Shown here piece by piece: positions 36,001-58,202 of a DNA stretch of 64,000 nucleotides (its first letter is position 1; the number at the start of each line of letters is the position of its first letter). Position numbers and translations under genes: made by a program. The notes beneath the pieces are model-generated. The model was not told where the DNA came from, searched no databases, and worked only from the letters and a program-made list of their open reading frames with translations. The DNA comes from an uncultured Planctomycetales bacterium (GTDB taxonomy: Bacteria; Omnitrophota; Gorgyraeia; Gygaellales; Profunditerraquicolaceae), in NCBI GenBank assembly GCA_964545575.1, contig CAZJFL010000001.1, positions 294,178 through 358,177 of the forward strand. The letters run 5' to 3'.

Positions 36001-39000
36001 TTTGTCTAGCGGTAAGATTATCTGCTGAATATGCAGGCTCCGTTCCCCTTGTTCCGGCGGTGTTGCTAAAGCTACCCCACAAAATAACATCTTCCGGTTT
36101 ACCGGTAGGATTAAACTTTATGTTCCCGACAATGTAATCTATATCCCGGGCAGGCATTTCCTGTGTAGCAGCCAAAGCCAGGTAAGGCAGAAGGTCGCGA
36201 CCGACTTTCTTTTGTAAGGCATAAATTTTATTCTCCGGCTGCTTTTCCAACCCTTTTAAGGCATCGGCAAAAATTTTCCCTGTTCCCGAAATAGTCCTCT
36301 GAATGCCGGTCGTGCTACTTAGGCCATCTACATCGCTATACTGTTTCTCGATGATCTCTTGCGGGCTGATGCCAAAGGCCGCCGGAGTATTGTCAAAAGC
36401 TACGGTTACATATCCCGTAGCCGAGGAGCCGCTTTTTACTCCCTCAAGCACATCCAGAGTATTCATCTTTTTGTACTCTGTCTTTCTAATCTTATCGTCT
36501 TGGATACTGAGCATGCTGGGCTTCTCGGAATAACCCGGAGTAATATTGCGCCAGTTCGTCCCTAACGTCTCCTCTAATGCTAAATCTACTGCTTCGCCAT
36601 AACCGGTTCTTGACTCGGTCTTTTGTCCTACTAAGACATTTTTATTAAAGGTCTGGGAAGTCTGTATTGTTTTCATGTAAGTCCACCCAGTATTTCCGCG
36701 CAGAGAAGCATCCCTGCCTTTTACCGGCACTGCCCCGCCTTCGTTATACCAGTAAAGCCGCTTTCTATCGGAAGCCTTGATGCTCCCGGGTAGACCTTTA
36801 CCCTTCTCTGCTTCTTGATCTAAAATGTCCTTTCCGCTCCGCAAAGAGGTAGACCCGAAAATATAGATTTCTGAAGGGGTCTCCCGAGCCGCTACCGCTA
36901 CGTCACGGCTCATTGTTGCTTCAGCCGTAGAGCGTTGCCTGGTGCCTGTCTCTATTTCTTCTAAGGTAGTGGTCTGAGAAACCTTGAGGCGGTCCGGAAC
37001 GCTGACTTCCCGAACTATTACTTGTGTCTCGCCGGAATTTCCTTTCAGCGTCTCTGTCTTTTTGCCAAAGCTTACTTTAGAATCGGAAACGTCGGCTACC
37101 TTAATAGACGGCTTAATTGGCGCGCCGGGCAAAGAAACAACTTGCGGCTTAAGCTTAATTTCATTGGATCTGGTAGTGTGATCCTGCAAGGCGGCTTCAG
37201 CTAAAACAAGGGCGACATCTATATTTGGCCCTGTTGCGTCCGACATAACCATCTGCCTGATATCCTCCCACTGTTGTGCGGAAAATGCCGGGGAAACTCC
37301 AGCGTGCTTGGCGATACCAAACCCTGCTGCTTCGTTTACCGCCAGAGAAATAATTCCTGTAGCGAGGAAGAAGTCCTTGCTTTTACCCGCCTTCTTTGCA
37401 ATAACGCTGCTGATAAACTCCGTGGCAGAGTCTTTTGCAGTTATTTCTCCGCCGACCACGCTTACGATAGGATCGGGGCCGCTGATGCCTGGCAATTTAA
37501 AATCCATATTTCTGCCGGATATGGCGAATACCCTGTGGCCGTTTATCGCCGCCATTGCCAATAGCTTTGTGCCCCCCAGCGGCGCTGCATCTTTAAAAAT
37601 AAGCTTGTAACTATCATAAGAATATACGGTCGGGTTGCTTCCTCTGACTAAAGCCGCATAAATAAAATATGGACTCTCCAGCAATTTATTTTTATCAAGC
37701 TTCCACATACTCATGCTCTTGCGTCCGCTGGTTATTCCCTCGGCTATCTCCGGCATCCAAGTCGCTATGTAATGCTGATCGGCATCAAAATAGCGCTTAA
37801 ACTGGCCATCGCCCCAACCAAATCTTCCTCTCTCTACCGCCTCCCTGATCAACGGCAGGTCCGGCTGCCAGCCAGGCAGGTTCCATTGCACAAATTGTGC
37901 CGCTACGGGATTATTCTGAACTTTTTTATGCAAGATTCCGGTAGGATTTTTACCTATCGTCACCAGATAGAGCGCATGCTTTTTGGTGACTCCGGAAACA
38001 TCTATGGTAAAGGTATCCTTTGCGTCTTCATCAGATAGGTCAGCTTGCAACACTCCCATAGGAAGTTTGTCGCTAAGCTGGTCATTAAGCTTTTTCATGT
38101 CGAGCGGCTCAAATAACTCGCCTATTAGTTCCTCAGTTTTATCTTTATCCTCGGAAACAAGCACTATTGTCTTACTGTCTTCCCCGAGCTTTATGCGCTT
38201 GTTTGGATTTGATTTTTGGAGTTCAACTAACACCTTGATCTTTTGCACTTCGGAAGAACCTGTCAAATCAGGAGACTTCAAAATCTCATCTATCTTTGCG
38301 ATGTTTATTGTATCTTTTATCTTTTGGTAGCCGGTCACCGGGTTATGATTATCAAATATATTCCAGACAGTCCTCGCCAGCCTCCATAAATCAGAAGCGG
38401 CGGTGTAAGTAAACTCGCTTGCGTTCTGCGCCGCGGCTGAATGGAGAGTGGCTGCGCCGTATTCAATCATCGCATACTTCGGAAAAAGACTCTCCAAGTT
38501 TCCGTCCTTTACAAAATCTCTCCAGGCAGTCTGATAATCGCTATACTTTTCGGCGCGCTTTCTTGATTCGGAATCATGAAGATCATAGTCATAAGGTTTA
38601 AGGTAAAGCGGGTCTTTGTCTTTGTCAAAGGGCAGGTAACCCATCGCCCGCATCATCCGGTCGGCATTAGCTTGAAAATTGTCTATCCCCGCCATTTCAT
38701 TGACCTTGTTGATATACATATTTAGCGTCCAGCCTGCCATGCCTTCGGTATAAGCAGGAGATGTCCTACCTAAAGTGCCGTAATTGACAATGACTTTCTC
38801 CACAAAATTATCTTTGAAGTTATTGAGAATATTACCCCAATTCCCATGCCAGCCAGTCTGGTAGAGGACATTAACCAGAGCCGATCCAGAGTAGGCGATA
38901 AGCGCCATATCACTGCGTGTCAGGCCCCAGTCATTGCGGTATACCCCGTCCTCGCATCTTTTATATGTCCCGGCGAATTTGGTCAAGGTGGAATCGAGTA

Positions 39001-40859: not shown

Positions 40860-40861
40860 TT

Positions 40862-42453: not shown

Positions 42454-42496
42454 CTTCGAGTTTTGCAAAGTCTTTTGAAAACTTCTTTTTAATCCC

Positions 42497-43691: not shown

Positions 43692-44576
43692 TTAAAATCC
43701 TTGTCCTTTTAAACCAAAACCGCCCTGCATAAATTGGATAAGGATAGGGCCGCCGACAATAATTGCCACTACCGGCATGATGAAGAAGATAAGGGGAAAG
43801 AGCATCTTAATCGGGGCTTGTAAAGCCAGGCGTTCACCTCTCTGGAACCTTTGACGGCGGGTTTCTTCGCCTAAGGCATTCAACACATCATAAACCGGAG
43901 TGCCCATACGGTCCGCAGAGACTAAGGTATTCACTAGAGAAAAAACCTCCGTAATATTTAAACGCCTGCTCATCGCCTTTAATGCCTCCTGCCGTGACTT
44001 GCCTACTTTAATTTCCTGAGTAACCATACTTAATTCCTTAATTAGGGGGCTGGGCTTTGAACGCTGGAGCACCCAATCTAGGCCTTGCATAAAATCTAGC
44101 CCTCCGCCGACGCAGAGAGTAAGCAAGTCGATCACATCAGGCAATACCTTTATAATAATCCGGTTACGCTTCTGAATACGTATCTTTAGATAAATATCCG
44201 GCAATAAAAATCCGATGCCAAAAATAATCAAACCCCACAAAGGCTCAAACCTTTTCAGCGTCAAATATACCCCTAAAAATAAACCCAGCATTAATAATTC
44301 TTTTATCCCTAAGTAATCTTCGGGCAGCAAATTTATCTCGGCGGATGACAATTTATCCATTACTGCCTGCCGTCTTAGCTTAGATAAAATAATCCGGTTA
44401 AGGGGAAAAAGCGGGCGGGTAAAAAATAAAGGGACCTTTATGAATTCATCCTTGGGGGATAATTTCGGGGCTTGCGGCTTCAGCTCGGGAGACAACTGCA
44501 TAGGCCGGCGCAAGACAAAAAAGAGCGAAATACTTAAGATCCCGCTAAATAGCAATACGTAGATTAAAACCGGCAT
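43692..44576 (-). CDS. tadC: TadC-like (T2SS-F / GspF domain) pilus inner-membrane protein. The likely start is ATG 44576 (MPVLIYVLL...), overlapping the tadB stop as TAATG with a GGAGGTG RBS.
   Basis: T2SSF-type block LPDVIDLLTLCVGGGLDFMQGLDWV...VSADRMGTPVYDVLNALGEE with flanking TM helices. The ORF track extends it to 44639. Confidence 0.8.
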   Translation of the reverse strand: MPVLIYVLLFSGILSISLFFVLRRPMQLSPELKPQAPKLSPKDEFIKVPLFFTRPLFPLNRIILSKLRRQAVMDKLSSAEINLLPEDYLGIKELLMLGLFLGVYLTLKRFEPLWGLIIFGIGFLLPDIYLKIRIQKRNRIIIKVLPDVIDLLTLCVGGGLDFMQGLDWVLQRSKPSPLIKELSMVTQEIKVGKSRQEALKAMSRRLNITEVFSLVNTLVSADRMGTPVYDVLNALGEETRRQRFQRGERLALQAPIKMLFPLIFFIMPVVAIIVGGPILIQFMQGGFGLKGQGF

Positions 44577-45424
44577 TACACCTCCACGCGGCTTAAACGA
44601 TTTAACATTACCGCTCCGATTACCTCCGAAACCACGCACCAGACCAAAAGAATCCTGCCCACTTCTGATTCTAACATCACATCAAAGAATTGCTTATTGG
44701 TGCTGATCACAAAAAAGGCAAAGATAATAGGCAAGACCGACATAATCATCCCCTGCCACCTCGCCTGCGTAGTCAGGGTTTTAATCTGATCATTGATTCT
44801 TTTTCTGATCCGGATATTCTCGCTTAAATGGGTAAAGATATCGGTCAGGTTTCCGCCGGTTTCCCGCGCTACCAGAATAGCGGTGCTCATTAAATTCAGG
44901 TCTTCAGAGCCCATCTTTTTATTCAGGCGCTCAAAAGAAGTCTCCAGGGGAACTCCCATTTTATTCTCTTTGACCATCAGCGCAAACTCCTGGGAGATGG
45001 GCGCAGGCATGTCTTCGGTTAAGACTTCCATTGCCTGGAGCAAGGATAGGCCGGCTTTTAAAGACTGGCTCAGGTTCACCAAGGCATCGCTTAGCTGGGC
45101 GCCAAACTTAGCCCTGCGGACTTTTTCCATCTGCCGGATGACCAGCATCGGCAGGATAAAACCGATCACAGCCCCGGCAAAAATCAAAATTATATTCTGG
45201 AATAAAAGGAAGGAGGCGACTGCGAAGACGATCGGGCTTACGGAAAAGTAGAGGGCGAGCTTCTTCTGCTCTACCCAGACATACATCTCTTCTAATTTCC
45301 CGGCGGCCCGCTTGGCTTCCTCTTTATGCGCGCGGCCATAGCGCGCAAGAAAGAAAGGCGCCAGCACATAAAAAAGCGAGGCCACTGCCCCGAAGCTAAA
45401 GAGAAAAATCAAAAATTTTAGCAC
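44576..45424 (-). CDS. tadB: TadB-like (T2SS-F domain) pilus inner-membrane protein
   Basis: QLSDALVNLSQSLKAGLSLLQAMEVL...LVARETGGNLTDIFTHLSENIRIRKRINDQIKTLTTQARWQGMIMSVLPI is typical of the TadB/GspF family. Confidence 0.8.
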   Translation of the reverse strand: MLKFLIFLFSFGAVASLFYVLAPFFLARYGRAHKEEAKRAAGKLEEMYVWVEQKKLALYFSVSPIVFAVASFLLFQNIILIFAGAVIGFILPMLVIRQMEKVRRAKFGAQLSDALVNLSQSLKAGLSLLQAMEVLTEDMPAPISQEFALMVKENKMGVPLETSFERLNKKMGSEDLNLMSTAILVARETGGNLTDIFTHLSENIRIRKRINDQIKTLTTQARWQGMIMSVLPIIFAFFVISTNKQFFDVMLESEVGRILLVWCVVSEVIGAVMLNRLSRVEV

Positions 45425-45451: not shown

Positions 45452-45631
45452 TTAGGGATGCGTTGTATAGGGATCGAATTGCCTACCGTGGCCAAAGGTA
45501 TCTCCCACTTCCCGCATCTTGCCTGAAATAGCCCGCTTCAGGTATATCGCCATCCCAATTAATGCTACCACAATTATGAGGATTAGGAAAGCGTATTCTA
45601 TTGAAATAAACGCCTTCTTGGCATTTTTCAT
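45452..45631 (-). CDS. flp: Flp-family pilin paralogue (59 aa, not in the ORF track). Its ATG at 45631 overlaps the upstream stop as ATGA.
   Basis: Translation MKNAKKAFISIEYAFLILIIVVALIGMAIYLKRAISGKMREVGDTFGHGRQFDPYTTHP. It shares the xxIEY + hydrophobic helix + YLKR..G motif with the tandem flp array. Confidence 0.65.
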   Translation of the reverse strand: MKNAKKAFISIEYAFLILIIVVALIGMAIYLKRAISGKMREVGDTFGHGRQFDPYTTHP

Positions 45632-46095
45632 TTTATCTCCACCACCTCTAAACCCACCAGTTTTCTCTTCTCGCCTTTAGCCAGGGTAAAGAGCATTCTT
45701 CTTTTGCCCGGGCGGTAGTCTGCGGCGATAACCACCCTCTCTCTTGTTTGGCTAAATATTCTCCAGTCAGCGAGGGCGTTCGGCTTCCCGCCGGTATAGG
45801 CAAACCCTAAGCTTACCCCCCTGATAAAGACCTCTTTATAATTACGCCGCTCTGCCTCATTAGGCGCCTTAGCGAAACCCGCTCCCACGTCAACTCCCAC
45901 GGCAATCAGCTTATTCCAATCGATAAATTCCCCTACCGAAGCCTTCCCTTCAATCATCCCCTTAAAGATTACGTCACGGCAGAACTCCACATCCTGTTTT
46001 TCTTTGTTCGTGAAAAACATAATCCCGGCAGCCAGGATACTGATAATAAAAACGTAGATAAGCAACCTGTAATCCTTATCCATCTTGATCACCAT
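45628..46095 (-). CDS. Hypothetical membrane-anchored protein (155 aa) inside the tad operon
   Basis: It is an ORF-track ORF with an N-terminal TM (LLIYVFIISILAAGIMFF) and no family recognised. It is tightly packed between the TadG-like gene and flp. Confidence 0.5.
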   Translation of the reverse strand: MVIKMDKDYRLLIYVFIISILAAGIMFFTNKEKQDVEFCRDVIFKGMIEGKASVGEFIDWNKLIAVGVDVGAGFAKAPNEAERRNYKEVFIRGVSLGFAYTGGKPNALADWRIFSQTRERVVIAADYRPGKRRMLFTLAKGEKRKLVGLEVVEIK

Positions 46096-48596
46096 TGGCT
46101 TGTTTTTTCTTTAATTTTCACAAACGGCCTATAACTTGCTCCTTGGTATAATCCATACTCTACCTTTGTCTTACGGGTAACCCTAAGCCACTCACCATCC
46201 ACATGATAATTCGCCCAGGGGTTCCACACCCCCAGCAAGCCCGCTGACTTGCGCGCCTCATCCATCCGCGTCACCTTCACCCAGTGGTCATTGCCTGAGC
46301 CGCTATAATGGTCAAGATAAAAACAAATTTCTTTGACATAATTATTAAAACTATCTTTTTCTGACATCTCCATACGCGCAAAATCAAAGTAGGCCGGCAT
46401 CTCTACGCTTACGGAGTGCTTGCCGCGGGAATCAGTCCAATTATAATAAGCCGGGGAAAAGTAGTAATACCGGCCATAAACAGGATGCGGGGGATCAAAG
46501 CTCAACCCTTGCTCTAATTGATCTAACCAATTTCTTATCCCATAGTCGCCCCCTGGATATTCACCCGGACCGTAGAGCGTATAGAGATATTGATTGAAAG
46601 CAGTAAATAAGGGGACATATTGCTCTACAATAAATTGCTTTTCAATCGTTGCCTTGATATCCTTTGAATAAAGACCACCGCCGGGGGGATACGGAACAGC
46701 AACGACCTCGTAGCTATGACCATTCCAGCTATAATTCTTGCAGGGGACAGGATTGGGCGGCAATATAAAGCCAGTAGTGGGATCGACAACGCAGGCAGTA
46801 AGACTCTCCATTTTGCTCTGTATCTTATTCCTAAGAGCTTCTAAGCCCGGAAACGGATTCGCCCACCCGGGCGGAGTCCCGTAAAATACTACTTCGGGTA
46901 GCGGCTTATCATCCTTATAAGGAGCTTGGGAAAACTGGTCAAACCAGAACCGCCAGTCAGAAATTACCGTGTAAAAAGAGTTCTGCGTCCCTTCATCTAT
47001 TAACTCTTCCAGCGATTCATCCAGTTGCTGCAAGTTGTACCATATCAGGTCCATTGTATCCACGGGCGTCTGCCCCAACTGTGCCGGCCGGCTCCCTGAA
47101 AAAAGCTTTTTTTCCTCATCGGTGTTCCATAACCCTATATCCATCAGGCGGCGCAGGAAAAAAATAACCGGACTATCCTGCCACAGGTTACCCTTAATAC
47201 AACAAAGGTTTTCCTTATTGTTCTGCCTACAAAAAATGCCCGGGGCCCTCGGAGGCGATTCGAGTTCGACGTTGGAAATCAAACCCTTGAGAAACGCTTT
47301 AAACTCTGGTAAATTACGCTGCTTTGGAACGGGGTCACGATAAATATACCCTTTGAGAAAATCTTTTATCTTATCGACTTTTATTTTCTGCATATTAAGC
47401 CGATCCAGCCACCAATAAGCAAACATAGGCGTGGATTCTGTGTAATTGCCGTCTCCGTCAACATCGCAGGGGTCGCGGCCCACTTCAAACTGCGGGTCGA
47501 TAGACCCATCATGATTGCAGTCATATTCGAATGTGCTGTTTGTCATCTGCGGGTCGTCAACAATATTACTTAATACCTGCAGGGCTATTCCTTCTTTTAT
47601 CTGATCGGGCTGAGGCAGGCCTCTTAATGCCCGGGCAAAAGAGCTAAAGGCAGCGGCGAGGTTCTTTAAGCCCTTCTGTCCTATCTCTACTGATTGTCTA
47701 AAGGATAGGTATTGCGCGCCTCCGGTAAGTAGTATGGCAGCTACCAATGCTTCCGGCACCAAAATCGATGCTACTCCTGGCATAGTAATCGTTACCTGGG
47801 TCAAGCCTGTGATAACAGGAGCGAACAGGTCTGATGCCGCCGGAATCATTGAAGCCTTAGCGCCGGCTGCCGTAGCTTCGGCGGCCTTAGTCAAGGCTTC
47901 AGAAAAACCAACAACGCTTGTGCTAACTTGCGGTGGGGCAGCAGCAACGCCTACGCCGGTAAAGACGCACGCTCCCCCGACAGCTAAACCCATTGCTAGC
48001 CCTATAGCCATACCGCTTAGCGCGCTGTTCCAAGTTGACGCGCCCCCCCATCTAAATCTATCTCCCGCAGCAGTCACCCGCGACTGCAACCCTCCTCCTA
48101 TATAACCACCTATCCCCCCTCCTAATAAGCCTGCTCCAGCAAGCACAGCTACTAACACAGGCGCTGCCAAGCCGCCAGTTAAAATTACGATAACCAGGGT
48201 CGCTAATATTACTATGGCGGCTACGATAAACCCCAAAATAACATCCAATATACCATTAGATTTGCATATTTTGGGAGGCGAAGTTTCCGTTCCTTCTATA
48301 TAAGTACCTCCCGGAAGCGGCTGCCTCATTATATTGCGAAAATGCGCTGCCCGCGAAAGCAGCTGTGAGCCAAGGGAAAGCGCAGCCGCGTCGGCAACGG
48401 TAGAGACCTTGGTGGCGGTCAAAGCGACTTCCCCGATATTTACAAAGACCATAATCAATATCAGGACGACCACAAGGATCAGGAGAATAAAAGTGGCTAT
48501 CTGGCCGGCGCAGTCCCCGCACCTGAGATTTCTCAATGAGGTTGTCTTGCTTAATTTATTTATCATCGCCCTATTTTCCTTTAGGCCAATTCTCAA
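46089..48596 (-). CDS. TadG-like pilus-associated protein (835 aa) with a Gly-rich TM region and a large extracellular C-terminal domain
   Basis: The N-terminus ...FILLILVVVLILIMVFVNIGEVALTATKVSTVADAAALSLGSQL matches the TadG/Tad N-terminal domain (hydrophobic segment plus the aDaAALAga motif). Confidence 0.65.
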   Translation of the reverse strand: MRIGLKENRAMINKLSKTTSLRNLRCGDCAGQIATFILLILVVVLILIMVFVNIGEVALTATKVSTVADAAALSLGSQLLSRAAHFRNIMRQPLPGGTYIEGTETSPPKICKSNGILDVILGFIVAAIVILATLVIVILTGGLAAPVLVAVLAGAGLLGGGIGGYIGGGLQSRVTAAGDRFRWGGASTWNSALSGMAIGLAMGLAVGGACVFTGVGVAAAPPQVSTSVVGFSEALTKAAEATAAGAKASMIPAASDLFAPVITGLTQVTITMPGVASILVPEALVAAILLTGGAQYLSFRQSVEIGQKGLKNLAAAFSSFARALRGLPQPDQIKEGIALQVLSNIVDDPQMTNSTFEYDCNHDGSIDPQFEVGRDPCDVDGDGNYTESTPMFAYWWLDRLNMQKIKVDKIKDFLKGYIYRDPVPKQRNLPEFKAFLKGLISNVELESPPRAPGIFCRQNNKENLCCIKGNLWQDSPVIFFLRRLMDIGLWNTDEEKKLFSGSRPAQLGQTPVDTMDLIWYNLQQLDESLEELIDEGTQNSFYTVISDWRFWFDQFSQAPYKDDKPLPEVVFYGTPPGWANPFPGLEALRNKIQSKMESLTACVVDPTTGFILPPNPVPCKNYSWNGHSYEVVAVPYPPGGGLYSKDIKATIEKQFIVEQYVPLFTAFNQYLYTLYGPGEYPGGDYGIRNWLDQLEQGLSFDPPHPVYGRYYYFSPAYYNWTDSRGKHSVSVEMPAYFDFARMEMSEKDSFNNYVKEICFYLDHYSGSGNDHWVKVTRMDEARKSAGLLGVWNPWANYHVDGEWLRVTRKTKVEYGLYQGASYRPFVKIKEKTSQW

Positions 48597-48999
48597 ATAT
48601 ATTCAGCTTCGGATAATCCTGCTCATTCTGTTCATCGACTATCCCCGGCGTAGAGTCAGGAGGCGTAACATAGCGCCATGCCTTGCAAATGTAAGGGCGG
48701 TTACAAGGATCTGGCGGTTGTATTTCCCTTCCGTTTAGGACGTCTAAACACTTAGTGCACACGAGCTTGGGTGTGGACACCTCTACGCTTCCTGCGGCAA
48801 CAGCTGTAGCTTCATAATCCACTTGTCGCTGAACCATCCGGCTGCTCAGCCAGACAAATATCCTTGCTGTAGCTACCAGCAAAAGCAGCATAAGAAAAAT
48901 ACTAATACTCAGCTCCAAGGTAACCTGCGCCTTTCTCTGGCTCCTGCGGCCGGCTACGGCGGTAGAAAATAATAAACTCTTCTTCGCCCTAACACACAT
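48571..48999 (-). CDS. TadE-like pseudopilin (142 aa)
   Basis: The N-terminus RRSQRKAQVTLELSISIFLMLLLLVATARI is a TadE-like N-terminal segment. Confidence 0.65.
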   Translation of the reverse strand: MCVRAKKSLLFSTAVAGRRSQRKAQVTLELSISIFLMLLLLVATARIFVWLSSRMVQRQVDYEATAVAAGSVEVSTPKLVCTKCLDVLNGREIQPPDPCNRPYICKAWRYVTPPDSTPGIVDEQNEQDYPKLNIFENWPKGK

Positions 49000-49024: not shown

Positions 49025-50467
49025 TTACTTCCTCGTCTTATTGGACCAATCCATATCTATGGTCCGGTTACTGTAAAGCCAGTCTATGCTCGACGTAGGC
49101 CTATCTGGACGCAGCAGATACCCTCCGTCGCTCACTTGATTAAGGTAGTGGATCTGCCTCACTGTGGCCTGGTTCAGATAAACGCTGTCCCTGGTTTGAA
49201 TCTGCTGCAGGAGCTCTCTTTTGCTTAAAGTCTCGGTTTTATTAGTTGTGGTAAGCAAATCCGGGCTTAAGCCCATTGCTTTAGCTTTATATGTGTGGCG
49301 GAAGATTTCCTCTATCACCGGAAAATCAAAGGTGTCATAGCGGACTGTGCCTTCATGGTACCTCACGTAGTCTCCGCAATACCAGGCGCCGCCATAATGA
49401 TCATTATAGTATTGCTCCCGTTGCTCGTTAGGGCGGTTAGTGCTCTCAATACATATTTCATCGCAACGCGTCAAATTCTCCGCCTCCGTTTGTCCTAACA
49501 TTCTAGCCTTGTTGCACTCATCGAAACAGAACTGCCTATCCACGATCATCCGGCACTGCGCGGTCAGGGAATCCTTATCTATAATCTCTGCGGCTGTAGT
49601 ATCGAGTATATATATGGGAAAGGTGTAGTCAAGACACCGCCAACCCCAAGGACCACGGAGACAGCTTCCCGGAGGATAATTTCTGGCCTCCTCAAAAGAT
49701 GTTAAAGTGCAATTGTCGCCTCCAATACTTATACCTACCAACTCCTTCCAGCATTCCGCACAGACACCATTCTGCCTTGGGCCTTTACACCAATAATAGT
49801 TATTAGCGGAAGGATTAGCCCCTAAGTCCATCATAGCATATCCGGTATACGGCTGAAAAAAATTACATTCTGCATTGCCTTGTGGAGCTGGCTCCCACCC
49901 GATATTCCTGCAATCACTACATTTGCGGTAATTTCTGTTCGCCAGGTCCGGCTCCAGATCGTCCCACCAGACATTGCTTGCTCCGTATATCTCCTCGTAT
50001 TTTTCGTACTGGCGCTCGTTGACATCGCGCTCCGTCCTGAAGGCCTGAGTCTTAAAGGATTGGGTAGAATAGCCGGCCGGGCTGCCCGGCTGATATTTAC
50101 CGTCGGAGACGTGGATATCCATCCGGTTTAATTCCAGCGCGTTTTCCGGATTCTCGTATAACCGGTGCGAACGTATCGGGCTGGTTGCTGAACTGGCAAC
50201 CGGGAAAATCTGCCCGATTCCTGTAGGGCTGGAAGGGTCAGGTACGTGTATATCTTTAATCATTATACTGGAAACGCTGGAGGGCTTATTGTCTTGTGCC
50301 GAATATTCCGCATCATAAAGCGCCTGCCTGAAAACCCGCCAGCTGACTTGATGCTGAAAATTATACCTTAAGCCATAATTTATCAAAACACCCAGAAGCA
50401 TGATTAAAAGCGAGCCGAAAATTGCCAGCTCCAATAATGACTGGGCTTTATTATTTACCTTATTCAT
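49025..50467 (-). CDS. TadE/TadF-like pseudopilin with a large Cys-rich C-terminal domain of about 17 Cys (480 aa)
   Basis: The N-terminus MNKVNNKAQSLLELAIFGSLLIMLLGVLINYG is a prepilin-like leader plus hydrophobic helix. The C-terminal 380 aa are rich in C, W, Y, N and G. Confidence 0.6.
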   Translation of the reverse strand: MNKVNNKAQSLLELAIFGSLLIMLLGVLINYGLRYNFQHQVSWRVFRQALYDAEYSAQDNKPSSVSSIMIKDIHVPDPSSPTGIGQIFPVASSATSPIRSHRLYENPENALELNRMDIHVSDGKYQPGSPAGYSTQSFKTQAFRTERDVNERQYEKYEEIYGASNVWWDDLEPDLANRNYRKCSDCRNIGWEPAPQGNAECNFFQPYTGYAMMDLGANPSANNYYWCKGPRQNGVCAECWKELVGISIGGDNCTLTSFEEARNYPPGSCLRGPWGWRCLDYTFPIYILDTTAAEIIDKDSLTAQCRMIVDRQFCFDECNKARMLGQTEAENLTRCDEICIESTNRPNEQREQYYNDHYGGAWYCGDYVRYHEGTVRYDTFDFPVIEEIFRHTYKAKAMGLSPDLLTTTNKTETLSKRELLQQIQTRDSVYLNQATVRQIHYLNQVSDGGYLLRPDRPTSSIDWLYSNRTIDMDWSNKTRK

Positions 50468-50855
50468 CGAAAAGTGATGACCCCAATTTTCTCACGTTTT
50501 CATTGCCGCTGGTATTGGTCCATCCTTTATTAAGTATGCTGTTTGTTTCGGTAGCAAATACATCTGTATCGTCAAAATCTCCATCGTCATTAAAGTCAAT
50601 TTGCGTGCCGTGCGCTTCATTATATGCCTTCTCGCTCCAAGTTATTACCGTATCTGTCGTGTTGCTATAGGAATAAACTACAGATGAGCCGGTAGTCTTT
50701 TTCGGGGCATACTGCTCACCCAATTCATCGGCCAGCTGCCTGAACCTGCCCTGCATGCCGCGCTTAAGATAGACTGCCATTGCTATTAAAGCAGCTACGA
50801 TGCAGGTAATTAACACCGCCACTTCTAAGGTTGTTTGAGCCTTATTCTTTTTCAC
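50460..50855 (-). CDS. flp: Flp-family pilin paralogue 10 (131 aa)
   Basis: MKKNKAQTTLEVAVLITCIVAALIAMAVYLKRGMQGRFR... Confidence 0.65.
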   Translation of the reverse strand: MKKNKAQTTLEVAVLITCIVAALIAMAVYLKRGMQGRFRQLADELGEQYAPKKTTGSSVVYSYSNTTDTVITWSEKAYNEAHGTQIDFNDDGDFDDTDVFATETNSILNKGWTNTSGNENVRKLGSSLFDE

Positions 50856-51198
50856 TCCACATCCCCTGAGAAAGAATTCCCTCTTTTTTAAACCGCTCGT
50901 CTCTTTCAGTCGTTACCCTTCCTTCTAAGTCTTTATTTATCTTTTTATAAGGAACCTGGTGTTCATCCACCGTAGTACTTATATTTGAATAACCTTTCAT
51001 TTTCCAGAGAAGGTCGTAATCAACTTCTACTAAGCCCTTTTTCTGGTCGCCGATAGCGTCGGCGGCCACCTGCACTACTCCCTGCACGCCGCGCTTCATA
51101 TAGGTCTGCATCCCTATGAGCGCGGCAGTAACAACCGCAATAAGCAAAACATACTCGGACAGACTCTGAGCTCTGCTATTTCTTCTTAGTTTTACCAT
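50842..51198 (-). CDS. flp: Flp-family pilin paralogue 9 (118 aa)
   Basis: ...SRAQSLSEYVLLIAVVTAALIGMQTYMKRGVQGVVQ... Confidence 0.7.
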   Translation of the reverse strand: MVKLRRNSRAQSLSEYVLLIAVVTAALIGMQTYMKRGVQGVVQVAADAIGDQKKGLVEVDYDLLWKMKGYSNISTTVDEHQVPYKKINKDLEGRVTTERDERFKKEGILSQGMWSEKE

Positions 51199-51246
51199 TT
51201 TTGCGCTATTTTGTCTATACCTATATCGCTTAGTTGCCTTGTGACC

Positions 51247-51582
51247 CTACGGTTTAATCCCGCTCAGCGGCTTCCAACTTGCAACATCTTCTGCGCTCTT
51301 TTCTTTTGTTTCACCGCCCGACTGTAAGGTAGACGTAGTTACTCGATTCTGGATTGTCTGCACGCTGGTTGTATCTTTCGTTGTCTCAAAGTCTACCTGA
51401 TTAGAGGTTGCGTTAGCCTCAAATTGCGCTCCGATATCGTCAGTGGACTGGCGCAGTTTTCCCTGCACGCCGCGTTTCATATAAATTTGTATGGCGAATA
51501 ATGCCGCTACCACCACAGCGACAATTATGGCATATTCCAAGGTGCTTTGGCCTTTTTTGTGCATACACATCGCTATACTCAC
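51247..51582 (-). CDS. flp: Flp-family pilin paralogue 8 (111 aa; the likely start is the internal MHKKGQ...)
   Basis: ...MHKKGQSTLEYAIIVAVVVAALFAIQIYMKRGVQGKLRQ... Confidence 0.7.
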   Translation of the reverse strand: MSIAMCMHKKGQSTLEYAIIVAVVVAALFAIQIYMKRGVQGKLRQSTDDIGAQFEANATSNQVDFETTKDTTSVQTIQNRVTTSTLQSGGETKEKSAEDVASWKPLSGIKP

Positions 51583-51600
51583 CTCCTTATTGGCTTATGG

Positions 51601-51915
51601 CTACTGTTGTACCGGTACCTTTACTGTTTGGGCCCCGCTACGCTCTGTCCTCCTATCAAGAGACTGACGGCTGACCGCGCCACCTAATTTGGTCTCATCC
51701 GTCTCGGTGTAGCCTTTTTCAGTATTGGTATAACTAGATTCGAGATAATACGGTTCATACTGGCCCGTGACATTAGCGGCTTTATCTACGGCGTATCTTA
51801 TACCGCCCTGCATACTTCTCTTTAAATACACCTGCATGGCCATAGCCGCCCCAACAACCAAAGCAATCACAATAGCATACTCGGCAGTGCTTTGGGCCCT
51901 TTTATGTCTTAACAT
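51601..51915 (-). CDS. flp: Flp-family pilin paralogue 7 (104 aa)
   Basis: MLRHKRAQSTAEYAIVIALVVGAAMAMQVYLKRSMQGGIR... Confidence 0.7.
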   Translation of the reverse strand: MLRHKRAQSTAEYAIVIALVVGAAMAMQVYLKRSMQGGIRYAVDKAANVTGQYEPYYLESSYTNTEKGYTETDETKLGGAVSRQSLDRRTERSGAQTVKVPVQQ

Positions 51916-51936
51916 TATTGTTCACCTCCTTAGTTA

Positions 51937-52323
51937 TTATTCGTATAGCTTTTCGTCCTTTAAATCCGTATTCACCTTTTCGGCGTCGTTTCCTAAGGCG
52001 CTTCTTTTTACGTCAGCCGGAGTTACTACGTCATATCTAGATGTGCCCACTCCTAGCTCCTGTGTGCCAAATCGTTCCGTTGTAACCTGATCGCCTGTCT
52101 GTGTAGTGGTATATTTGGAAGTCATACGGCCGGCGGAATACTGTTCGCCGATTTTATCTGTGGATTCACGCAGTTTTCCCTGCACGCCGCGGCGCATATA
52201 TATCTGTATGGTCAATAAAGTTCCCACTACTACTGCAATAATCACCGCATATTCCAGAGTGCTTTGTCCCAGCTTATTTTTAGGCATCACTTTATCACCT
52301 CCCTTAATCCCTGCTAAAAACAC
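51937..52323 (-). CDS. flp: Flp-family pilin paralogue 6 (128 aa; the likely start is the internal MPKNKLGQ...)
   Basis: ...MPKNKLGQSTLEYAVIIAVVVGTLLTIQIYMRRGVQGKLRE... Confidence 0.7.
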   Translation of the reverse strand: MFLAGIKGGDKVMPKNKLGQSTLEYAVIIAVVVGTLLTIQIYMRRGVQGKLRESTDKIGEQYSAGRMTSKYTTTQTGDQVTTERFGTQELGVGTSRYDVVTPADVKRSALGNDAEKVNTDLKDEKLYE

Positions 52324-52356
52324 TATCTTAACCGCTCACAAACCTTTGCTTAAGAT

Positions 52357-52767
52357 TTAAGGCGGATTCTGATTTCCCGGCTCACCAAAGCGATATTCCT
52401 GATAATCATCTTTTGCCTGCCTAGTCGTCTGATCAGTAGTACGTGCTACTTTACCTCCCTTGTCCATCTTTGAAGTATCCTTCGAACCGGCTACGGTTGT
52501 CGAAGTTGACACAGCGCTCAGCCCCTCAGGTTCGTACTGATTACTTAGCTCCACGCCCTGCTTAGCGCCAATATCATTCCAATAGTCCTGATGATCTTCA
52601 AGTGCTTTCACAGACTGATCACTTGCATCCTTATATCTACCCTGTATGCCTCTTTTAACATAAGTCTGCATCCCGACTACTGCTGCTATTACTAAGCCGA
52701 TGAGAATCGCGTATTCAGCGGTGCTCTGGGCCTTTTTATTCCTGAATAACCTTAGCATTTTTTTCAC
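52357..52767 (-). CDS. flp: Flp-family pilin paralogue 5 (136 aa)
   Basis: ...NKKAQSTAEYAILIGLVIAAVVGMQTYVKRGIQGRYK... Confidence 0.7.
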   Translation of the reverse strand: MKKMLRLFRNKKAQSTAEYAILIGLVIAAVVGMQTYVKRGIQGRYKDASDQSVKALEDHQDYWNDIGAKQGVELSNQYEPEGLSAVSTSTTVAGSKDTSKMDKGGKVARTTDQTTRQAKDDYQEYRFGEPGNQNPP

Positions 52768-52790
52768 CTCCTTGGCTTTTGGTCGATATT

Positions 52791-52961
52791 TTAGAACTTC
52801 TTCGCTACATTCTGAATCGCAGTATCCGCATCAGTAAGGGTTTTATTTACGGCCGGCTTAATATACTCTTTAGCCGCGAAGAGAATAACCCCGATGATAG
52901 CGGTAATTACCAACACATATTCCAAGATGCTCTGGCCTCTTCCGTATCTTACTCTTGCCAT
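52791..52961 (-). CDS. flp: Flp-family pilin paralogue 4 (56 aa, below the ORF-track cut-off)
   Basis: I derived MARVRYGRGQSILEYVLVITAIIGVILFAAKEYIKPAVNKTLTDADTAIQNVAKKF from the reverse complement. An RBS AAGGAG lies 7 nt upstream of the ATG at 52961. Confidence 0.6.
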   Translation of the reverse strand: MARVRYGRGQSILEYVLVITAIIGVILFAAKEYIKPAVNKTLTDADTAIQNVAKKF

Positions 52962-52987
52962 ATCTTCTCCTTTCCAATCATTCTTCT

Positions 52988-53179
52988 TTATTTTGTCATA
53001 TTCAATATCTCCCCCGAGCTGTCCCCAATTTTTGTCGCTGATTTATTCATTAACTGCCCTACACCGGTGCTACTGGGATCTTGTTTCATAGTGAACACAA
53101 AAGCGGCAACTACACCAACGACTAGCGTCAGAATAATGATGTACTCCAATGTATTCTGCCCTTTCTTCTTTCTTAACAT
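52988..53179 (-). CDS. flp: Flp-family pilin paralogue 3 (63 aa)
   Basis: MLRKKKGQNTLEYIIILTLVVGVVAAFVF.... An RBS GGAGGTGA lies upstream. Confidence 0.7.
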   Translation of the reverse strand: MLRKKKGQNTLEYIIILTLVVGVVAAFVFTMKQDPSSTGVGQLMNKSATKIGDSSGEILNMTK

Positions 53180-53203
53180 GTACTCACCTCCTTATTTTTT
53201 ATA

Positions 53204-53356
53204 CTATGGCCTGACTACTTCTGCGTTAACCTGATCTTCTATAACTTTAAGGTTTGCGTTAAGGCTGCGCTGCACATAGGTGCTCATTGCCATTAGCGCT
53301 GCTACCACTACCGCAATAATCACTGAATATTCCAATACGCTTTGGCCTTTTTTCAT
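53204..53356 (-). CDS. flp: Flp-family pilin paralogue 2 (51 aa, below the ORF-track cut-off)
   Basis: I derived MKKGQSVLEYSVIIAVVVAALMAMSTYVQRSLNANLKVIEDQVNAEVVRP from the reverse complement of 53204-53356. Confidence 0.55.
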   Translation of the reverse strand: MKKGQSVLEYSVIIAVVVAALMAMSTYVQRSLNANLKVIEDQVNAEVVRP

Positions 53357-53359
53357 CTT

Positions 53360-53575
53360 TTACCCCGGATTAATTATGCGAGAGGCGACCCTCCCAAAGA
53401 ATCCCACGGTTAGTCTTGTTCCTTGCAAAGTTCTTTTTACATTTACCAAAAAATTTAATCCCGGGCCTACCGACGCAATTGTTAGGGCTGTAATCACCGC
53501 GAAAAGAACAAAATATTCTATAGCCGCCTGTCCTTTTTTGCCTTTGCGGATTTTTAAAGACTTTATAAAACTCAT
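53360..53575 (-). CDS. flp: Flp-family pilin paralogue 1 (71 aa), the first gene of the tad operon
   Basis: MSFIKSLKIRKGKKGQAAIEYFVLFAVITALTIASVG... shows the Flp G/xxxxEY processing-site motif. Confidence 0.7.
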   Translation of the reverse strand: MSFIKSLKIRKGKKGQAAIEYFVLFAVITALTIASVGPGLNFLVNVKRTLQGTRLTVGFFGRVASRIINPG

Positions 53576-53770: not shown

Positions 53771-53799
53771 AATATAGCATTTATAACTAGCGCTGTCAA
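53771..53799 (-). promoter_or_regulatory. Sigma70-like promoter for the flp/tad operon. The -35 TTGACA is at 53794-53799, followed by a 17-nt spacer and a -10 TATATT at 53771-53776.
   Basis: Read from the reverse complement. It has the same architecture as the promoters of the other two riboswitch-controlled units. Confidence 0.5.
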
Positions 53800-53833: not shown

Positions 53834-53883
53834 GGGACAGTCCCCTTAGGATTCAATAGCTTAGCTCTGGCGGGGACAGTCCC
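53834..53883. repeat. Palindrome pair gggacagtcccc (53834-53845) and ggggacagtccc (53872-53883), 35 bp upstream of the flp promoter -35
   Basis: Direct reading. The second copy abuts the stop codon of the 773-aa gene. Confidence 0.85.
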
Positions 53884-56204
53884 TACGCTAAGAACCAGAG
53901 CCGCTTGCCCCCGGTGAAAATAATCTCCTTTTCATTCAGCCTGCGGCAGGCGTATTCCAGCGCCTTTAAATACGGATATCCCGCAGGGGGTTGAAAGGTC
54001 ACCAAAAGGCTATCCTCTTGCGCCTCCATCCGGCAGGTTAAGCCATAAAACTGCTCTTTTGCCGTCGGGAAATCCTTATCCTCATAGCCGATAGGCAGGA
54101 GGTGCCAGCGGGCATAGAGATCCAGGGCTTTCAGGTAATAACTGAATATCGCGCTGATATCAAAATCCGCTCCCTTGGGCAATTCCAGGTTCTCCGTCGA
54201 GAAAAAGCGCTGGGAGGTGGCGGTGTAGGTGAACAATTCGACTTTGCGGCTATAATCCTGAAAGGCCTCTTCCAAGTTTGGCCAGCGGTTAAGATAAGTA
54301 GAAGCCAGCTCTTCCAGATTTAATTTTTCCGCGGGGAAATTGCTCAGGATCAAGAGCCGCGCCTTCTCGGCAGGACCGGCCTTTAAGGCACAGCCTCTTA
54401 ATGTAACACTTTTATTTGCATCAGGTTGTATCAAGTCTAATTCTATATTCGCCAGATAAAAGTCCTTTTTTAAAGGCGCGAAATGAAAGGGCTTAAACTC
54501 GCCCAACGTCTTGACCTGACGGTATTCGGCAAACTGCCAGGGCCAGAGGCCAAAGATAAAATGGCGCTTTTTCATCGGGTTTACCCGTATAATTTCTATC
54601 TCTTCAAACCTGTTGCTGTAAAGGCCTAAGCTCATAATCCGCTTTTCATCCCCCTCTAAACCTAAGATAAAATCAAAAAACTCTTTGGTCGGCAAATCAT
54701 AACCCGGAGCCATAAAAAGCACGAAAGGCGCGTCCTCCTGAAAATATCTTTTTACGTAAGTCTTTATATTATAAATAGTTGTGGAAAAATTATAGGGGAT
54801 ATGCACCGTGGACCAGGCTGTATGCAGCTGGCCGTCTAAATAGACTGCTGTGCCGTCGGATAAGTTTACTTTGATCCCACGCACTTCCTGCAAGACACTG
54901 GCAATTGTGCGCAGTATGTCCATTGGCAAGGCTTTAATTGCCTGTAATTCATTCAGATAACCTGACAGCTCTTCAGGGCTGAACCTATAATTTAACAGCG
55001 GCCATAAGCCGTAATCCGGCTTGCTCTGGGCAACGACTGATACTTCAAAGAGGCTATTGTAGATGAAAAACTCAGTTTTGGCTAAAAACTCTTTTTCTTC
55101 GTTTTTCAAGCGGCTGTTGATTACATCAGCAATAAAGCGGCTTCCGCCTAAAAGATAATCCGCGGATTTCAGCAAAATCGCCCCTAAACCCGTAAATGTG
55201 CCTTCAGTTTGGACAATTTTAGCGGCTTTAAGATTAGCTTCCTCTACAGCCCTGGCCTTGGCTTCGGCTTCAGCTGCAGCTTTTCTTTCTGTTTCTACCT
55301 GAGCCTTTAATGCGGCTTCGAACTTTGCCTTTTCTTCTGCTTCCCTGCGGGCTATTTCTTCGGCTAAGCGCTTTTCGCGGGCCTCGACTTCTGCGCGCGC
55401 GCGCTCATCCGCTTCATGCTTGGCCTTGACTTCGGCTTCTGCTTCTTGGCGCGCTTTCTCCTCCGCTTCTATGCGCGCTTTTTCTTCGGCTTCTGCCTTA
55501 GCTTTTAATTCCGCTTCTTCTCTGGCCCTAGCTTCCGCTTCCTCTTTGGCTTTTCTTTCCGCTTTAAGCTTTGCTTTTTCTTCGGCTTCTTTGCGCGCTT
55601 TTTCTTCGGCTTCTGCCTTAGCTTTAGCCTCTGCTTCCTGACGCGCTTTTTCTTCTGCCTCTCGACGAGCCTTCTCTTGCGCCTCAGCTTCGGCTTTGGC
55701 GCGTGCTTCTGCTTCTAGCCGCGCCTGTTCTTCTGCTTTAATTCTGGCTTCTTCCTCGGCCCTGGCTTTTGCCTCGGCTTCGGCCTTTGCCTTTACCTCA
55801 GCTTCAGCTTTCAGCTTCGCTTCTTCTGCTGCCTCGGCTTCGGCTTTAAGCTTGGCTTCCTCTGCTACCCTAACTTCGGCAGAAGGCGGGGGCGCCGGCA
55901 TTTCTATCGGCTTAGTTACTTCTGGCGGAAATTCCAAAACAGGGACAGTCCCCTTCGGGGACAGTCCCTTTTCAATCACACCTTTGAGCTTAAGGGCATA
56001 CTTTCTCTTGGTGCGCCTTCTACCCACCGGCATGCTTAAGCTGTTCTCTTTAAACAAAGCGTTAATGCTGGACTTAGAGACTTTAGCCTGAAACTTAGTT
56101 TCTATCAAGGCGGCCATACTGCGGCAGCTGAGCTTAGGATCGGCTTTTTTGCTCTCCAGAATAAAAGTGACTATTTCCGGTTTTAATTTATAAATTACGC
56201 CCAC
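53883..56204 (-). CDS. 773-aa protein with an N-terminal HTH-like segment, an E/A/K-rich coiled-coil low-complexity region of about 230 aa, and a C-terminal globular domain of about 430 aa. Its GTG start has a strong GGAGGG RBS.
   Basis: It is an ORF-track ORF. The N-terminus reads KPEIVTFILESKKADPKLSCRSMAALIETKFQAKVSKSSINALFKEN (helix-turn-helix-like). The middle reads AEEAKLKAEAEV.AKAEAEAKARAEEEAR.... The C-terminus contains ...STYLNRWPNLEEAFQDYSRKV. It has no TM segment. Confidence 0.7.
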   Translation of the reverse strand: MGVIYKLKPEIVTFILESKKADPKLSCRSMAALIETKFQAKVSKSSINALFKENSLSMPVGRRRTKRKYALKLKGVIEKGLSPKGTVPVLEFPPEVTKPIEMPAPPPSAEVRVAEEAKLKAEAEAAEEAKLKAEAEVKAKAEAEAKARAEEEARIKAEEQARLEAEARAKAEAEAQEKARREAEEKARQEAEAKAKAEAEEKARKEAEEKAKLKAERKAKEEAEARAREEAELKAKAEAEEKARIEAEEKARQEAEAEVKAKHEADERARAEVEAREKRLAEEIARREAEEKAKFEAALKAQVETERKAAAEAEAKARAVEEANLKAAKIVQTEGTFTGLGAILLKSADYLLGGSRFIADVINSRLKNEEKEFLAKTEFFIYNSLFEVSVVAQSKPDYGLWPLLNYRFSPEELSGYLNELQAIKALPMDILRTIASVLQEVRGIKVNLSDGTAVYLDGQLHTAWSTVHIPYNFSTTIYNIKTYVKRYFQEDAPFVLFMAPGYDLPTKEFFDFILGLEGDEKRIMSLGLYSNRFEEIEIIRVNPMKKRHFIFGLWPWQFAEYRQVKTLGEFKPFHFAPLKKDFYLANIELDLIQPDANKSVTLRGCALKAGPAEKARLLILSNFPAEKLNLEELASTYLNRWPNLEEAFQDYSRKVELFTYTATSQRFFSTENLELPKGADFDISAIFSYYLKALDLYARWHLLPIGYEDKDFPTAKEQFYGLTCRMEAQEDSLLVTFQPPAGYPYLKALEYACRRLNEKEIIFTGGKRLWFLA
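55230..55900. repeat. Low-complexity GC-rich repeat tract (gcttcTgcttc / ggcttcggc units) encoding the E/A/K coiled coil
   Basis: The plus-strand ORFs 55420..55641 and 55696..56091 (ASASS.AF...) are antisense shadows of this tract. Confidence 0.8.
55942..55968. repeat. Palindrome pair gggacagtcccc / ggggacagtccc separated by 3 nt, in frame inside the 773-aa gene (it encodes KGLSPKGTVPV)
   Basis: Direct reading. Confidence 0.85.
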
Positions 56205-57938: not shown

Positions 57939-58202
57939 ATGACTAAATTAAGGACAGTCACTTTTTTGACGCGGGAGCAAATTGATTTTCTGGATAAATT
58001 AGGAAAGGACGCATTGTTTTATAAAGGCTCAAAGCTTTCGCGCGCGCATATCCTTGCCGAGCTGGTCGATTTATTAATGGAGCTAGGAATCGACGTGAAG
58101 CAGATAGACTTAGCCCATGGTCACTTAGCAGGCGAAATATTAAAGGCAATGAACAACGGGCATAATGGGCAGGAGAAAAATGAAGAAACACATTTTCACT
58201 AA
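57939..58202 (+). CDS. Small putative ribbon-helix-helix-like DNA-binding protein (87 aa from ATG 57939; the ORF track starts at 57912)
   Basis: An RBS AGGAG lies 8 nt upstream. The N-terminus reads KLRTVTFLTREQIDFLDKL...SRAHILAELVDLLMELG, a beta-strand followed by two helices as in RHH/CopG-like proteins. The assignment is tentative. Confidence 0.45.
   Translation: MTKLRTVTFLTREQIDFLDKLGKDALFYKGSKLSRAHILAELVDLLMELGIDVKQIDLAHGHLAGEILKAMNNGHNGQEKNEETHFH

Follow-up and report, generated by a model that had tools for sequence, protein, structure and literature searches.

The canonical Tad/Flp (type IVc) pili are encoded by the Flp1-TadV-RcpCAB-TadZABCDEFG locus of Aggregatibacter and by the PilA-Cpa genes of Caulobacter. 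Omnitrophota are abundant, uncultured and ultra-small bacteria that are thought to be predators or parasites. We analyzed a stretch of 64,000 nucleotides (hereafter the window) of contig CAZJFL010000001.1, which comes from an uncultured bacterium of this phylum and contains an array of ten small pilin-like genes together with an eleventh gene, the orphan, located apart from the others. Our results suggest that these eleven genes probably constitute the pilin repertoire of a conserved Tad-like (type IVc-like) filament machine of Omnitrophota, encoded upstream of giant genes.

Parts of this locus type have been reported previously. West-Roberts et al. (2023; bioRxiv 10.1101/2023.11.21.568195) described a conserved locus beside giant genes and devoted one sentence to its "many small genes"; Seymour et al. 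(2023; PMC10066038) found a Tad complex in Velamenicoccia (Omnitrophota); and pilus genes flanking the giant genes of Omnitrophota were again reported in 2026. A paper of 2025 on a limonene enrichment makes no mention of pili. The window carries the same type of locus as that of West-Roberts et al. and Seymour et al., except that it is devoid of the motor and secretin half and presents plus-strand genes at that place. Two further Tad machines are relevant for comparison. The Kil system of Myxococcus xanthus comprises the major pilin KilP, the Flp adapters KilK/KilO and four KilLMN tip complexes (PMC12075869), and the Tad system of Bdellovibrio bacteriovorus presents a TadZA fusion, the genes flp1-4 and the processing of Flp1 by PilD (bioRxiv 10.64898/2026.07.08.737194). 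The Tad-like locus and the adjacent giant gene represent the main genomic clues to the attack of Omnitrophota on other cells.

We listed all open reading frames (ORFs) of at least 30 amino acids (aa) between 44.5 and 54.5 kb. The ten packed ORFs of the array and the orphan were found on the minus strand where the first-pass annotation had placed them: the array runs consecutively from position 53575 down to 50460 and the orphan is a 59-aa ORF at 45452-45631. The longest ORFs of genes 1 to 10 measure 71, 50, 63, 56, 136, 128, 104, 111, 118 and 131 aa, respectively. Three starts were shifted based on the position of the Shine-Dalgarno site (gene 5, ATG at 52758, 133 aa; gene 6, ATG at 52287, 116 aa; gene 8, ATG at 51570, 107 aa), and all three agree with the independent gene calls made on the identical ENA contig L001. 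We then built a profile hidden Markov model (HMM) from the N-termini and iterated it over all the ORFs of the window and of 89 related loci. Among the ORFs of the 64-kb window, this model retrieved the 11 pilin-like ones and no others (E-values between 7e-8 and 2.5e-23), which excludes chance as the origin of the shared N-termini. The features of the pilin-like genes are the following (the arrow marks the predicted cleavage site, mature sizes are predicted, and types are the orthogroups presented below):

53771..53799, minus strand: promoter-like site TTGACA-17-TATATT with an upstream TG, about 195 nt before gene 1; consensus scan, 11 of 12 matches, a pattern match only
53360..53575, minus strand: gene 1, type S1, short; 71 aa, mature 56 aa; leader MSFIKSLKIRKGKKG↓QAAIEY
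53204..53356, minus strand: gene 2, type S2, short; 50 aa, mature 46 aa; MKKG↓QSVLEY; HMM E-value 7e-20
52988..53179, minus strand: gene 3, type S3, short; 63 aa, mature 56 aa; strong Shine-Dalgarno site
52791..52961, minus strand: gene 4, type S3, short; 56 aa, mature 47 aa; lineage duplicate of gene 3
52357..52758, minus strand: gene 5, type LA, long; 133 aa, mature 123 aa; Shine-Dalgarno-supported start
51937..52287, minus strand: gene 6, type LB, long; 116 aa, mature 109 aa
51601..51915, minus strand: gene 7, type LA, long; 104 aa, mature 97 aa; strong Shine-Dalgarno site
51247..51570, minus strand: gene 8, type LB, long; 107 aa, mature 100 aa
50842..51198, minus strand: gene 9, type LC, long; 118 aa, mature 108 aa
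50460..50855, minus strand: gene 10, type LB, long; 131 aa, mature 125 aa; E-V in place of E-Y
45452..45631, minus strand: gene 11, type O (orphan), short; 59 aa, mature 52 aa; MKNAKKA↓FISIEY; directly upstream of tadB

The common N-terminus is composed of a Lys/Arg-rich leader, the motif [GA]↓Q[STNA]xxE[YV] and a hydrophobic stretch of about 20 residues, the orphan presenting A↓FISIEY at the motif. Glutamate at position +5 and G or A at position -1 are found in all eleven proteins, and tyrosine at position +6 in ten of them (valine in gene 10). The leader consensus K(K)[GA]Q[SAT]xxEY proposed in the first-pass annotation does not hold for gene 10 or the orphan; the hydrophobic helix that it placed after the leader is predicted in all 11. 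The glutamine at +1 may resemble that of EppA substrates, as reportedly described by Szabo et al. in 2007. More generally, class III signal matches and a leader ending in KG↓Q are shared with archaeal pili (Methanococcus Epd/EppA; Haloferax PilA1-6, PMC4858521), which also rely on several paralogues per machine with a TadC-like platform; in contrast to these, the host is here a diderm bacterium with a secretin, and the E-Y at +5/+6 is Flp-like.

We next compared the pilins across genomes. Their homologues form at least 1,731 clusters, and all those with a named source belong to Candidatus Omnitrophota/Omnitrophica; some are labeled "Flp pilus assembly pilin Flp" or "UPF0333" by JGI. A search anchored on TadB, with one genome per GTDB species, yielded 80 loci, nearly all of which are titled Omnitrophota. 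With our own profile, 7-14 Flp-like ORFs were detected per locus with complete flanks; across the 55 loci with at least seven genes the median is 9, and 24 of the 55 possess exactly 9. The proteobacterial Tad loci from the same scan gave zero matches to the pilin model and, in a looser motif search, at most two Flp-like ORFs. The size of the array had been considered unusual: eleven genes far exceed the canonical Tad loci, but such a number is normal among Omnitrophota.

Orthogroups were defined by community detection on a reciprocal-best-hit graph of 559 proteins from 73 loci. Seven large orthogroups take in every gene of the window:

S1: window gene 1; 47 of 73 loci
S2: window gene 2; 56 of 73 loci
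S3: window genes 3 and 4; 58 of 73 loci
LA: window genes 5 and 7; 58 of 73 loci
LB: window genes 6, 8 and 10; 62 of 73 loci
LC: window gene 9; 57 of 73 loci
O: window gene 11; 70 of 73 loci, always last

In the 55 loci, the array follows the order S1-S2-S3-LA-LB-(X7 or X9)-LC-(LB or X8)-O, with S1 usually being the first gene. The window presents the string S1-S2-S3-S3-LA-LB-LA-LB-LC-LB-O, which corresponds to the seven ancestral types plus extra copies of S3, LA and LB, and the same string was found in loci L011, L034 and L040. Reciprocal best hits occupy the same ordinal position for 11 of 11 genes in L011 and L034 and for 10 of 11 in L040, where gene 1 had no match. In other lineages, the blocks [S1-S2] and [S3-LA-LB] transpose or duplicate as units. 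These results suggest that the eleven genes represent a standard, phylum-wide pilin set and not a peculiarity of this genome. The "many small genes" can now be resolved into an ordered set of seven types, with defined parts: S2 as the candidate major pilin, O as a pilin next to the platform that is retained universally, and a conserved S3-LA-LB triad.

Conservation extends to the smallest genes. Of all the paralogues, gene 2 is the best conserved and most Flp-like: in most related loci its reciprocal best hit occupies the corresponding place in the array, with 54-73% identity. The orphan comes second in conservation (46-68% identity among orthologues). The orthologues of gene 4 are 48-63% identical in seven of the eight loci compared and 27% identical in the eighth. 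The small ORFs at 52791-52961 and 53204-53356, on which the count of the first-pass annotation depended, are thus conserved and the array is not reduced to eight genes on these grounds. Gene 2 is nevertheless uncalled on the ENA contig L001, and its exact 50-aa sequence is recorded only from JGI/IMG and not in NCBI/ENA annotations.

The conservation of positional orthologues suggests that the eleven proteins are specialized subunits of one multi-pilin filament. Alternatively, the paralogues could be interchangeable or alternative major pilins, forming regulated homopolymeric or mixed fibers that differ in surface chemistry, for instance to suit different prey. Several lines of evidence are consistent with such a scenario: any of six PilA proteins suffices for pili in Haloferax volcanii (PMC4858521), the tip complexes of Myxococcus are partly redundant (PMC12075869), duplications of LA, LB and S3 have occurred time and again across several lineages, and the tails are the most divergent region between the paralogues. 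However, the seven types are found side by side and in fixed order in nearly every genome and are not freely gained and lost, a pattern that non-redundant parts would be expected to show. Short and long types further differ in architecture, and the genes form one operon-like unit with a single good promoter-like site and no internal terminators. We therefore consider alternative major pilins to be quite unlikely.

The organization of the array is indeed compact. Intergenic gaps range from -14 to 48 nt when defined from the longest ORFs, with a maximum of 69 nt after correction of the starts, and genes 9 and 10 overlap by 14 nt. Shine-Dalgarno sites of the type AAGGAGGTG are located upstream of genes 3, 5, 6, 7 and 8, and ribosome-binding sites were also identified before gene 1 (GGAGG), gene 4 (AAGGAG) and the orphan (GGTGGAG), with no obvious Shine-Dalgarno site upstream of gene 9. 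Gene 2 starts 3 nt past the stop of gene 1 and is, for this reason, probably translationally coupled to it. Every gene of the array has an intact frame, most of them with a Shine-Dalgarno-type site or a coupled start, and no convincing terminator was found within the array.

A third possibility is that the array encodes phase- or antigenically variable pilins, with an invertible promoter, slipped-strand switching or silent cassettes as the mechanism. The only features that point in this direction are the large number of paralogues and the short A6-A7 runs in the lysine-rich leaders. The array contains no tandem repeats and a single, weak inverted repeat of 14 nt, and its direct repeats correspond to conserved N-terminal coding sequence with 60-79% DNA identity or to shared ribosome-binding sites. 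Paralogues are at most 79% identical in DNA over short stretches (the longest spans 147 nt at 71%) and hence show no sign of recent gene conversion. The hallmarks of phase-variable systems, namely simple-sequence tracts, invertible segments and near-identical silent cassettes, were not found in the array. No difference from an independent assembly was found over 12.4 kb (100% identity), frames are intact with mostly Shine-Dalgarno-type or coupled starts, and gene order and orthology are kept across species; these observations make phase variation highly improbable. The first-pass annotation had suggested a heteropolymeric or phase-variable fiber: the seven positional orthogroups across 55 loci indirectly favor a fiber of several subunits, but phase variation finds no such backing.

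The eleven proteins fall into two size classes. Five genes have mature products within the Flp range of about 40-60 aa (46-56 aa) and the other six have mature products of 97-125 aa. It had been proposed that C-terminal tails grow in length along the operon. We observed instead a bimodal step, with four short genes (46-56 aa) followed by six long ones (97-125 aa). The proposal that the long tails are rich in Ser/Thr/Gln applies to five of the six long genes, where S/T/Q/N residues account for 29-39% of the tail relative to a background of 20%, and not to the sixth; these tails are also acidic and free of cysteine. The box Y[LM]KR[GS][VMI]QG, which was described as conserved in all paralogues, is restricted to the six long genes 5-10 in the form Y-x-[KR]-R-[GS]-x-Q-G. 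Genes 1-4 lack it and the orphan aligns with a variant, YLKRAISG. In fact, the orphan carries the YLKRAISG...D..G.G.Q[FY] module of the long pilins and ends before the beta sheet.

Among orthologues, the tails are conserved over their full length. This is well illustrated by gene 6, for which 64 full-length orthologues present 46-80% identity over about 110 aa with the tail conserved throughout. The AlphaFold2 model of gene 6, computed from an alignment of orthologues only (64 sequences), reached a mean confidence score (pLDDT) of 72 and consists of one helix (residues 10-50) and four strands (60-63, 68-73, 83-89 and 93-96), the sheet having a pLDDT of 76-81. The model of gene 8, based on a mixed-paralogue alignment, had a pLDDT of 57 with the tail below 50 and the helix as its only confident element, and it was unusable on this account. 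The prediction for gene 6 suggests that the long LA, LB and LC pilins combine an alpha-1 helix with a small Thr-rich beta head, unlike the all-helical Flp. If these long pilins are indeed filament subunits, Tad pilins are not limited to head-less helices.

The genes surrounding the array include a Tad platform. On the minus strand, the block reads in the following order: a 773-aa protein, the array, proteins of 480 and 142 aa, a TadG-like protein, a 155-aa protein, the orphan, TadB, TadC, a toxin-antitoxin pair, two ORFs and a giant frame. The main neighboring features of the window are:

58153-63999, plus strand: exoprotein frame with a TPS (two-partner secretion) domain, more than 1,949 aa, runs off the window
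56420-57559, plus strand: DUF4143/AAA_14 ATPase
53883..56204, minus strand: 773-aa protein directly upstream of the array; KAEAEA-type coiled-coil repeat and C-terminal domain of about 430 aa
49025..50467, minus strand: 480-aa large minor-pilin-like protein; NNKA↓QSLLEL; N-terminal ~160 aa conserved in 43 related loci; no Pfam family
48571..48999, minus strand: 142-aa minor-pilin-like protein; RKA↓QVTLEL; 37 related loci; no Pfam family
46089..48596, minus strand: 835-aa TadG-like protein; PF13400 Tad, 27.2 bits relative to a cut-off of 22.3
45628..46095, minus strand: 155-aa single-pass membrane protein; conserved in 10 related loci; no Pfam family
44576..45424, minus strand: TadB-like platform protein; PF00482 T2SSF, E-value 1.2e-16
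43692..44639, minus strand: TadC-like platform protein; PF00482 T2SSF, E-value 2.2e-14
2..40861, minus strand: giant open frame of more than 13,620 aa, downstream of the locus, runs off the window

Two T2SSF proteins and a PF13400 protein therefore lie in the same strand block, in an operon-like arrangement, which substantiates the earlier assignment to a Tad-type locus. In addition, a cluster-mate of the TadB protein at 90% identity is named "tight adherence protein B" by JGI. The locus shares with canonical Tad systems the G↓xxxxEY motif, short pilins of 46-56 aa, a split TadB/TadC platform and a TadG-like protein, as well as TadZ, TadA, RcpC and a secretin in the relatives. It differs from them by its eleven pilin-like genes of seven types in place of one to three flp genes with tadE/tadF, by its conserved glutamine at +1, by the beta head predicted for its six long pilins (97-125 aa) and by the absence of tadV beside the pilins.

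The relatives reveal a more complete organization. In loci L007-L009 the genes follow the order rotamase, RcpC, secretin-TonB_C fusion, 720-aa TadZ-TadA fusion, DUF192, then the homologue of the 773-aa protein or an insertion, followed by the run of small genes, the large pilin-like proteins, the PF13400 protein, a gene of about 60 aa, TadB and TadC. A giant gene follows TadC in two of these three distant relatives (L008 and L009). About 45 related loci have a match to TadZA and/or DUF192 upstream of the array, and the complete module was seen in seven loci. As for the Tad accessories, DUF192 (PF02643) follows TadZ-TadA in nearly all the related loci that cover the region and TonB_C is part of the secretin in L007-L009, both of which are unusual.

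This organization can also be read in terms of secretion. The proteins could form the short periplasmic pseudopilus of a type II secretion-like exporter for the giant protein or for other effectors, in which one major and many minor pseudopilins would act as a piston in place of a long adhesive pilus. West-Roberts et al. (2023) indeed call the conserved locus type II secretion-like and report it always beside giant genes; a giant open frame adjoins the locus here, in L008 and in L009; the number of distinct subunits matches or exceeds the GspG-K set; and the secretin of L007-L009 is fused to TonB_C. The pseudopilus of type II secretion systems (GspG with GspH-I-J-K) also resembles the array in combining one major pilin with distinct, conserved and non-redundant minor pilins in tandem with the platform. 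However, these systems rely on one platform protein, GspF, and on the ATPase GspE, and they have no TadZ, whereas the split TadB/TadC platform and the TadZ-TadA ATPase are those of the Tad pili of Bdellovibrio. The N-termini are of the Flp/class III type (G↓Q-S-T-L-E-Y) and not of the GspG type (G↓F-T-L-x-E with N-methylation), and NCBIfam returned no sequence match for the window pilins beyond a trace of 14 bits to XpsH. Finally, it is implausible that a secretin would accept a substrate that exceeds 13,000 aa and contains many transmembrane segments. A pseudopilus is therefore a serious but unlikely explanation for these genes.

Returning to the multi-pilin filament, we propose the following mechanism. 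The prepilins would insert in the inner membrane, where a prepilin peptidase encoded outside the window would cut after the G or A, leaving Q at +1 and E at +5. The TadB/TadC platform and the TadZ-TadA motor would assemble the subunits through an RcpC-secretin channel, the motor and the channel lying outside the window here and directly upstream in the relatives. One short, Flp-sized type would make up the bulk of the filament, with S2 (gene 2) as first candidate and O as second, and the remaining types, including the long LA, LB and LC, would be specialized subunits of low abundance. Together with the 480-aa, 142-aa and TadG-like proteins, these minor types may prime, cap or decorate the filament, which would contact prey or host cells or deploy the adjacent giant protein.

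The Kil and Bdellovibrio machines share several properties with this scheme: many pilin-like subunits per Tad machine, a predatory or parasitic lifestyle, a TadZ-TadA fusion, Flp proteins of about 59 aa, large TadG/KilN-like minor pilins and no peptidase in the cluster. A peptidase acting in trans has a precedent, since the PilD of the type IVa pili of Bdellovibrio processes Flp1. In contrast to the single tandem array of small genes described here, the tip clusters of Kil are dispersed and contain three genes each, and the mid-sized LA/LB/LC class of the window has no described counterpart in the literature consulted.

Several results weigh against the filament scheme. Using the L008 proteins as queries (tblastn), we found no rotamase, RcpC, secretin, TadZ-TadA or DUF192 in the 64-kb window. 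Pfam scans of the window neighbors revealed no prepilin peptidase and the precomputed annotations of L007-L009 contain no match to Peptidase_A24. The first-pass annotation proposed a check of the pilins with the Flp_Fap profile (PF04964); none of the ten array genes reaches its gathering score of 32.2 bits, the best being gene 2 with 15.9 bits (E-value 0.012). Likewise, none of the 11 genes or of the large neighbors reaches an NCBIfam cut-off. The proposal of S2 as candidate major pilin draws only on its size, its conservation and a weak profile similarity, and its ribosome-binding site is weak. As regards the missing module, the motor and secretin half appears to be separated from the pilin and platform half in this genome, or lost. 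The synteny breaks directly upstream of the 773-aa gene, where the relatives have the secretin, TadZ-TadA and DUF192.

Other profiles left traces in these proteins (the Pfam scan covered the ten array genes, and the NCBIfam scan all 11 genes and the large neighbors). The top Pfam match is Class_IIIsignal (PF04021; cut-off 23.7 bits) for four of the ten array genes. With this profile gene 3 reaches 24.1 bits, genes 1, 2 and 8 remain below the cut-off with 18-20 bits and genes 5 and 10 with 13-15 bits, and genes 4, 6, 7 and 9 have no match. No match to TadE (PF07811) was found among the ten genes at E-values up to 1, and TadF (PF16964) matched only gene 8 (E-value 0.067; 13.6 bits relative to a cut-off of 27.3). 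Within the S2 orthogroup, 9 of 31 members match Flp_Fap with an E-value of 0.01 or lower (best 1.6e-4) and 7 of 31 match Class_IIIsignal; among the orthologues of LB, 15 of 64 match Class_IIIsignal and 4 of 64 match Flp_Fap. Searching the PDB sequences with the family profile returned non-significant matches only: a Geobacter pilin (E-value 0.076) and the Flp pilins 8u2b and 8u1k (E-values 1.7-4.8). Because the prepilin motif and the genomic context are present while no curated profile reaches its cut-off, with the exception of PF04021 for gene 3, these proteins appear to be Flp/class III prepilin-like and yet to constitute their own unclassified family. The whole family escapes the curated Flp, TadE and NCBIfam models and the 50-aa gene is absent from the NCBI/ENA annotation, suggesting that pilin counts are systematically underestimated in the genomes of Omnitrophota. 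In the searchable literature we came across no account of the grammar of seven types, of the long pilins as a class, of a universal O pilin beside the platform or of the failure of curated models to detect the family; all of these seem undescribed.

The scheme could be extended further. Seven co-evolving, Flp-derived types, including a beta-headed "long Flp" class and organized as an [S1-S2] dyad and an [S3-LA-LB] triad, might assemble in an ordered manner with the three large minor pilins into a filament of unprecedented subunit complexity that presents or deploys the giant protein (>13,000 aa) on prey. This detailed scenario is speculative and, taken as a whole, we hold it to be doubtful.

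The 773-aa protein directly upstream of the array is another recurrent component of these loci. Homologues were found in 49 related loci, immediately upstream of the array wherever positions are recorded, and the best matches share 38-57% identity in the C-terminal domain. No Pfam family and no PDB relative were identified for this protein, which may serve the machine either as a dedicated regulator or as one of its structural components. We also considered that it might derive from a transposase, based on the motif YLNRWPNLEE, and found no support for this origin in the Pfam or PDB sequence searches. The DNA of the gene contains tandem repeats of 24 and 36 nt, and an N-terminal segment of the protein appears helix-turn-helix-like by eye.

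On the other side of the locus, a Phd-family antitoxin and a RelE/ParE-family toxin (43009-43601, minus strand) are inserted between tadC and the genes that precede the giant ORF. They are followed by ORFs of 393 and 163 aa (40862-42519, minus strand), which match no family and have homologues in two (393 aa) and zero (163 aa) of the related loci; both therefore appear to be lineage-specific. The giant frame continues in frame right after the stop of the 163-aa ORF (40862-41353), and a PG_binding_1 domain was identified at about aa 1619-1670, within its N-terminal 5,000 aa.

Finally, the taxonomic titles of some loci differ from their pilin content. Several loci with the same type order are titled Planctomycetales or Planctomycetia. 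Locus L040 (JAIWAR010000014.1), with the same type string as the window, is an Omnitrophota-type locus found in a metagenome-assembled genome titled Methanosarcinales archaeon. This is probably a case of mis-binning, possibly due to the co-abundance of a predator with its methanogen prey.

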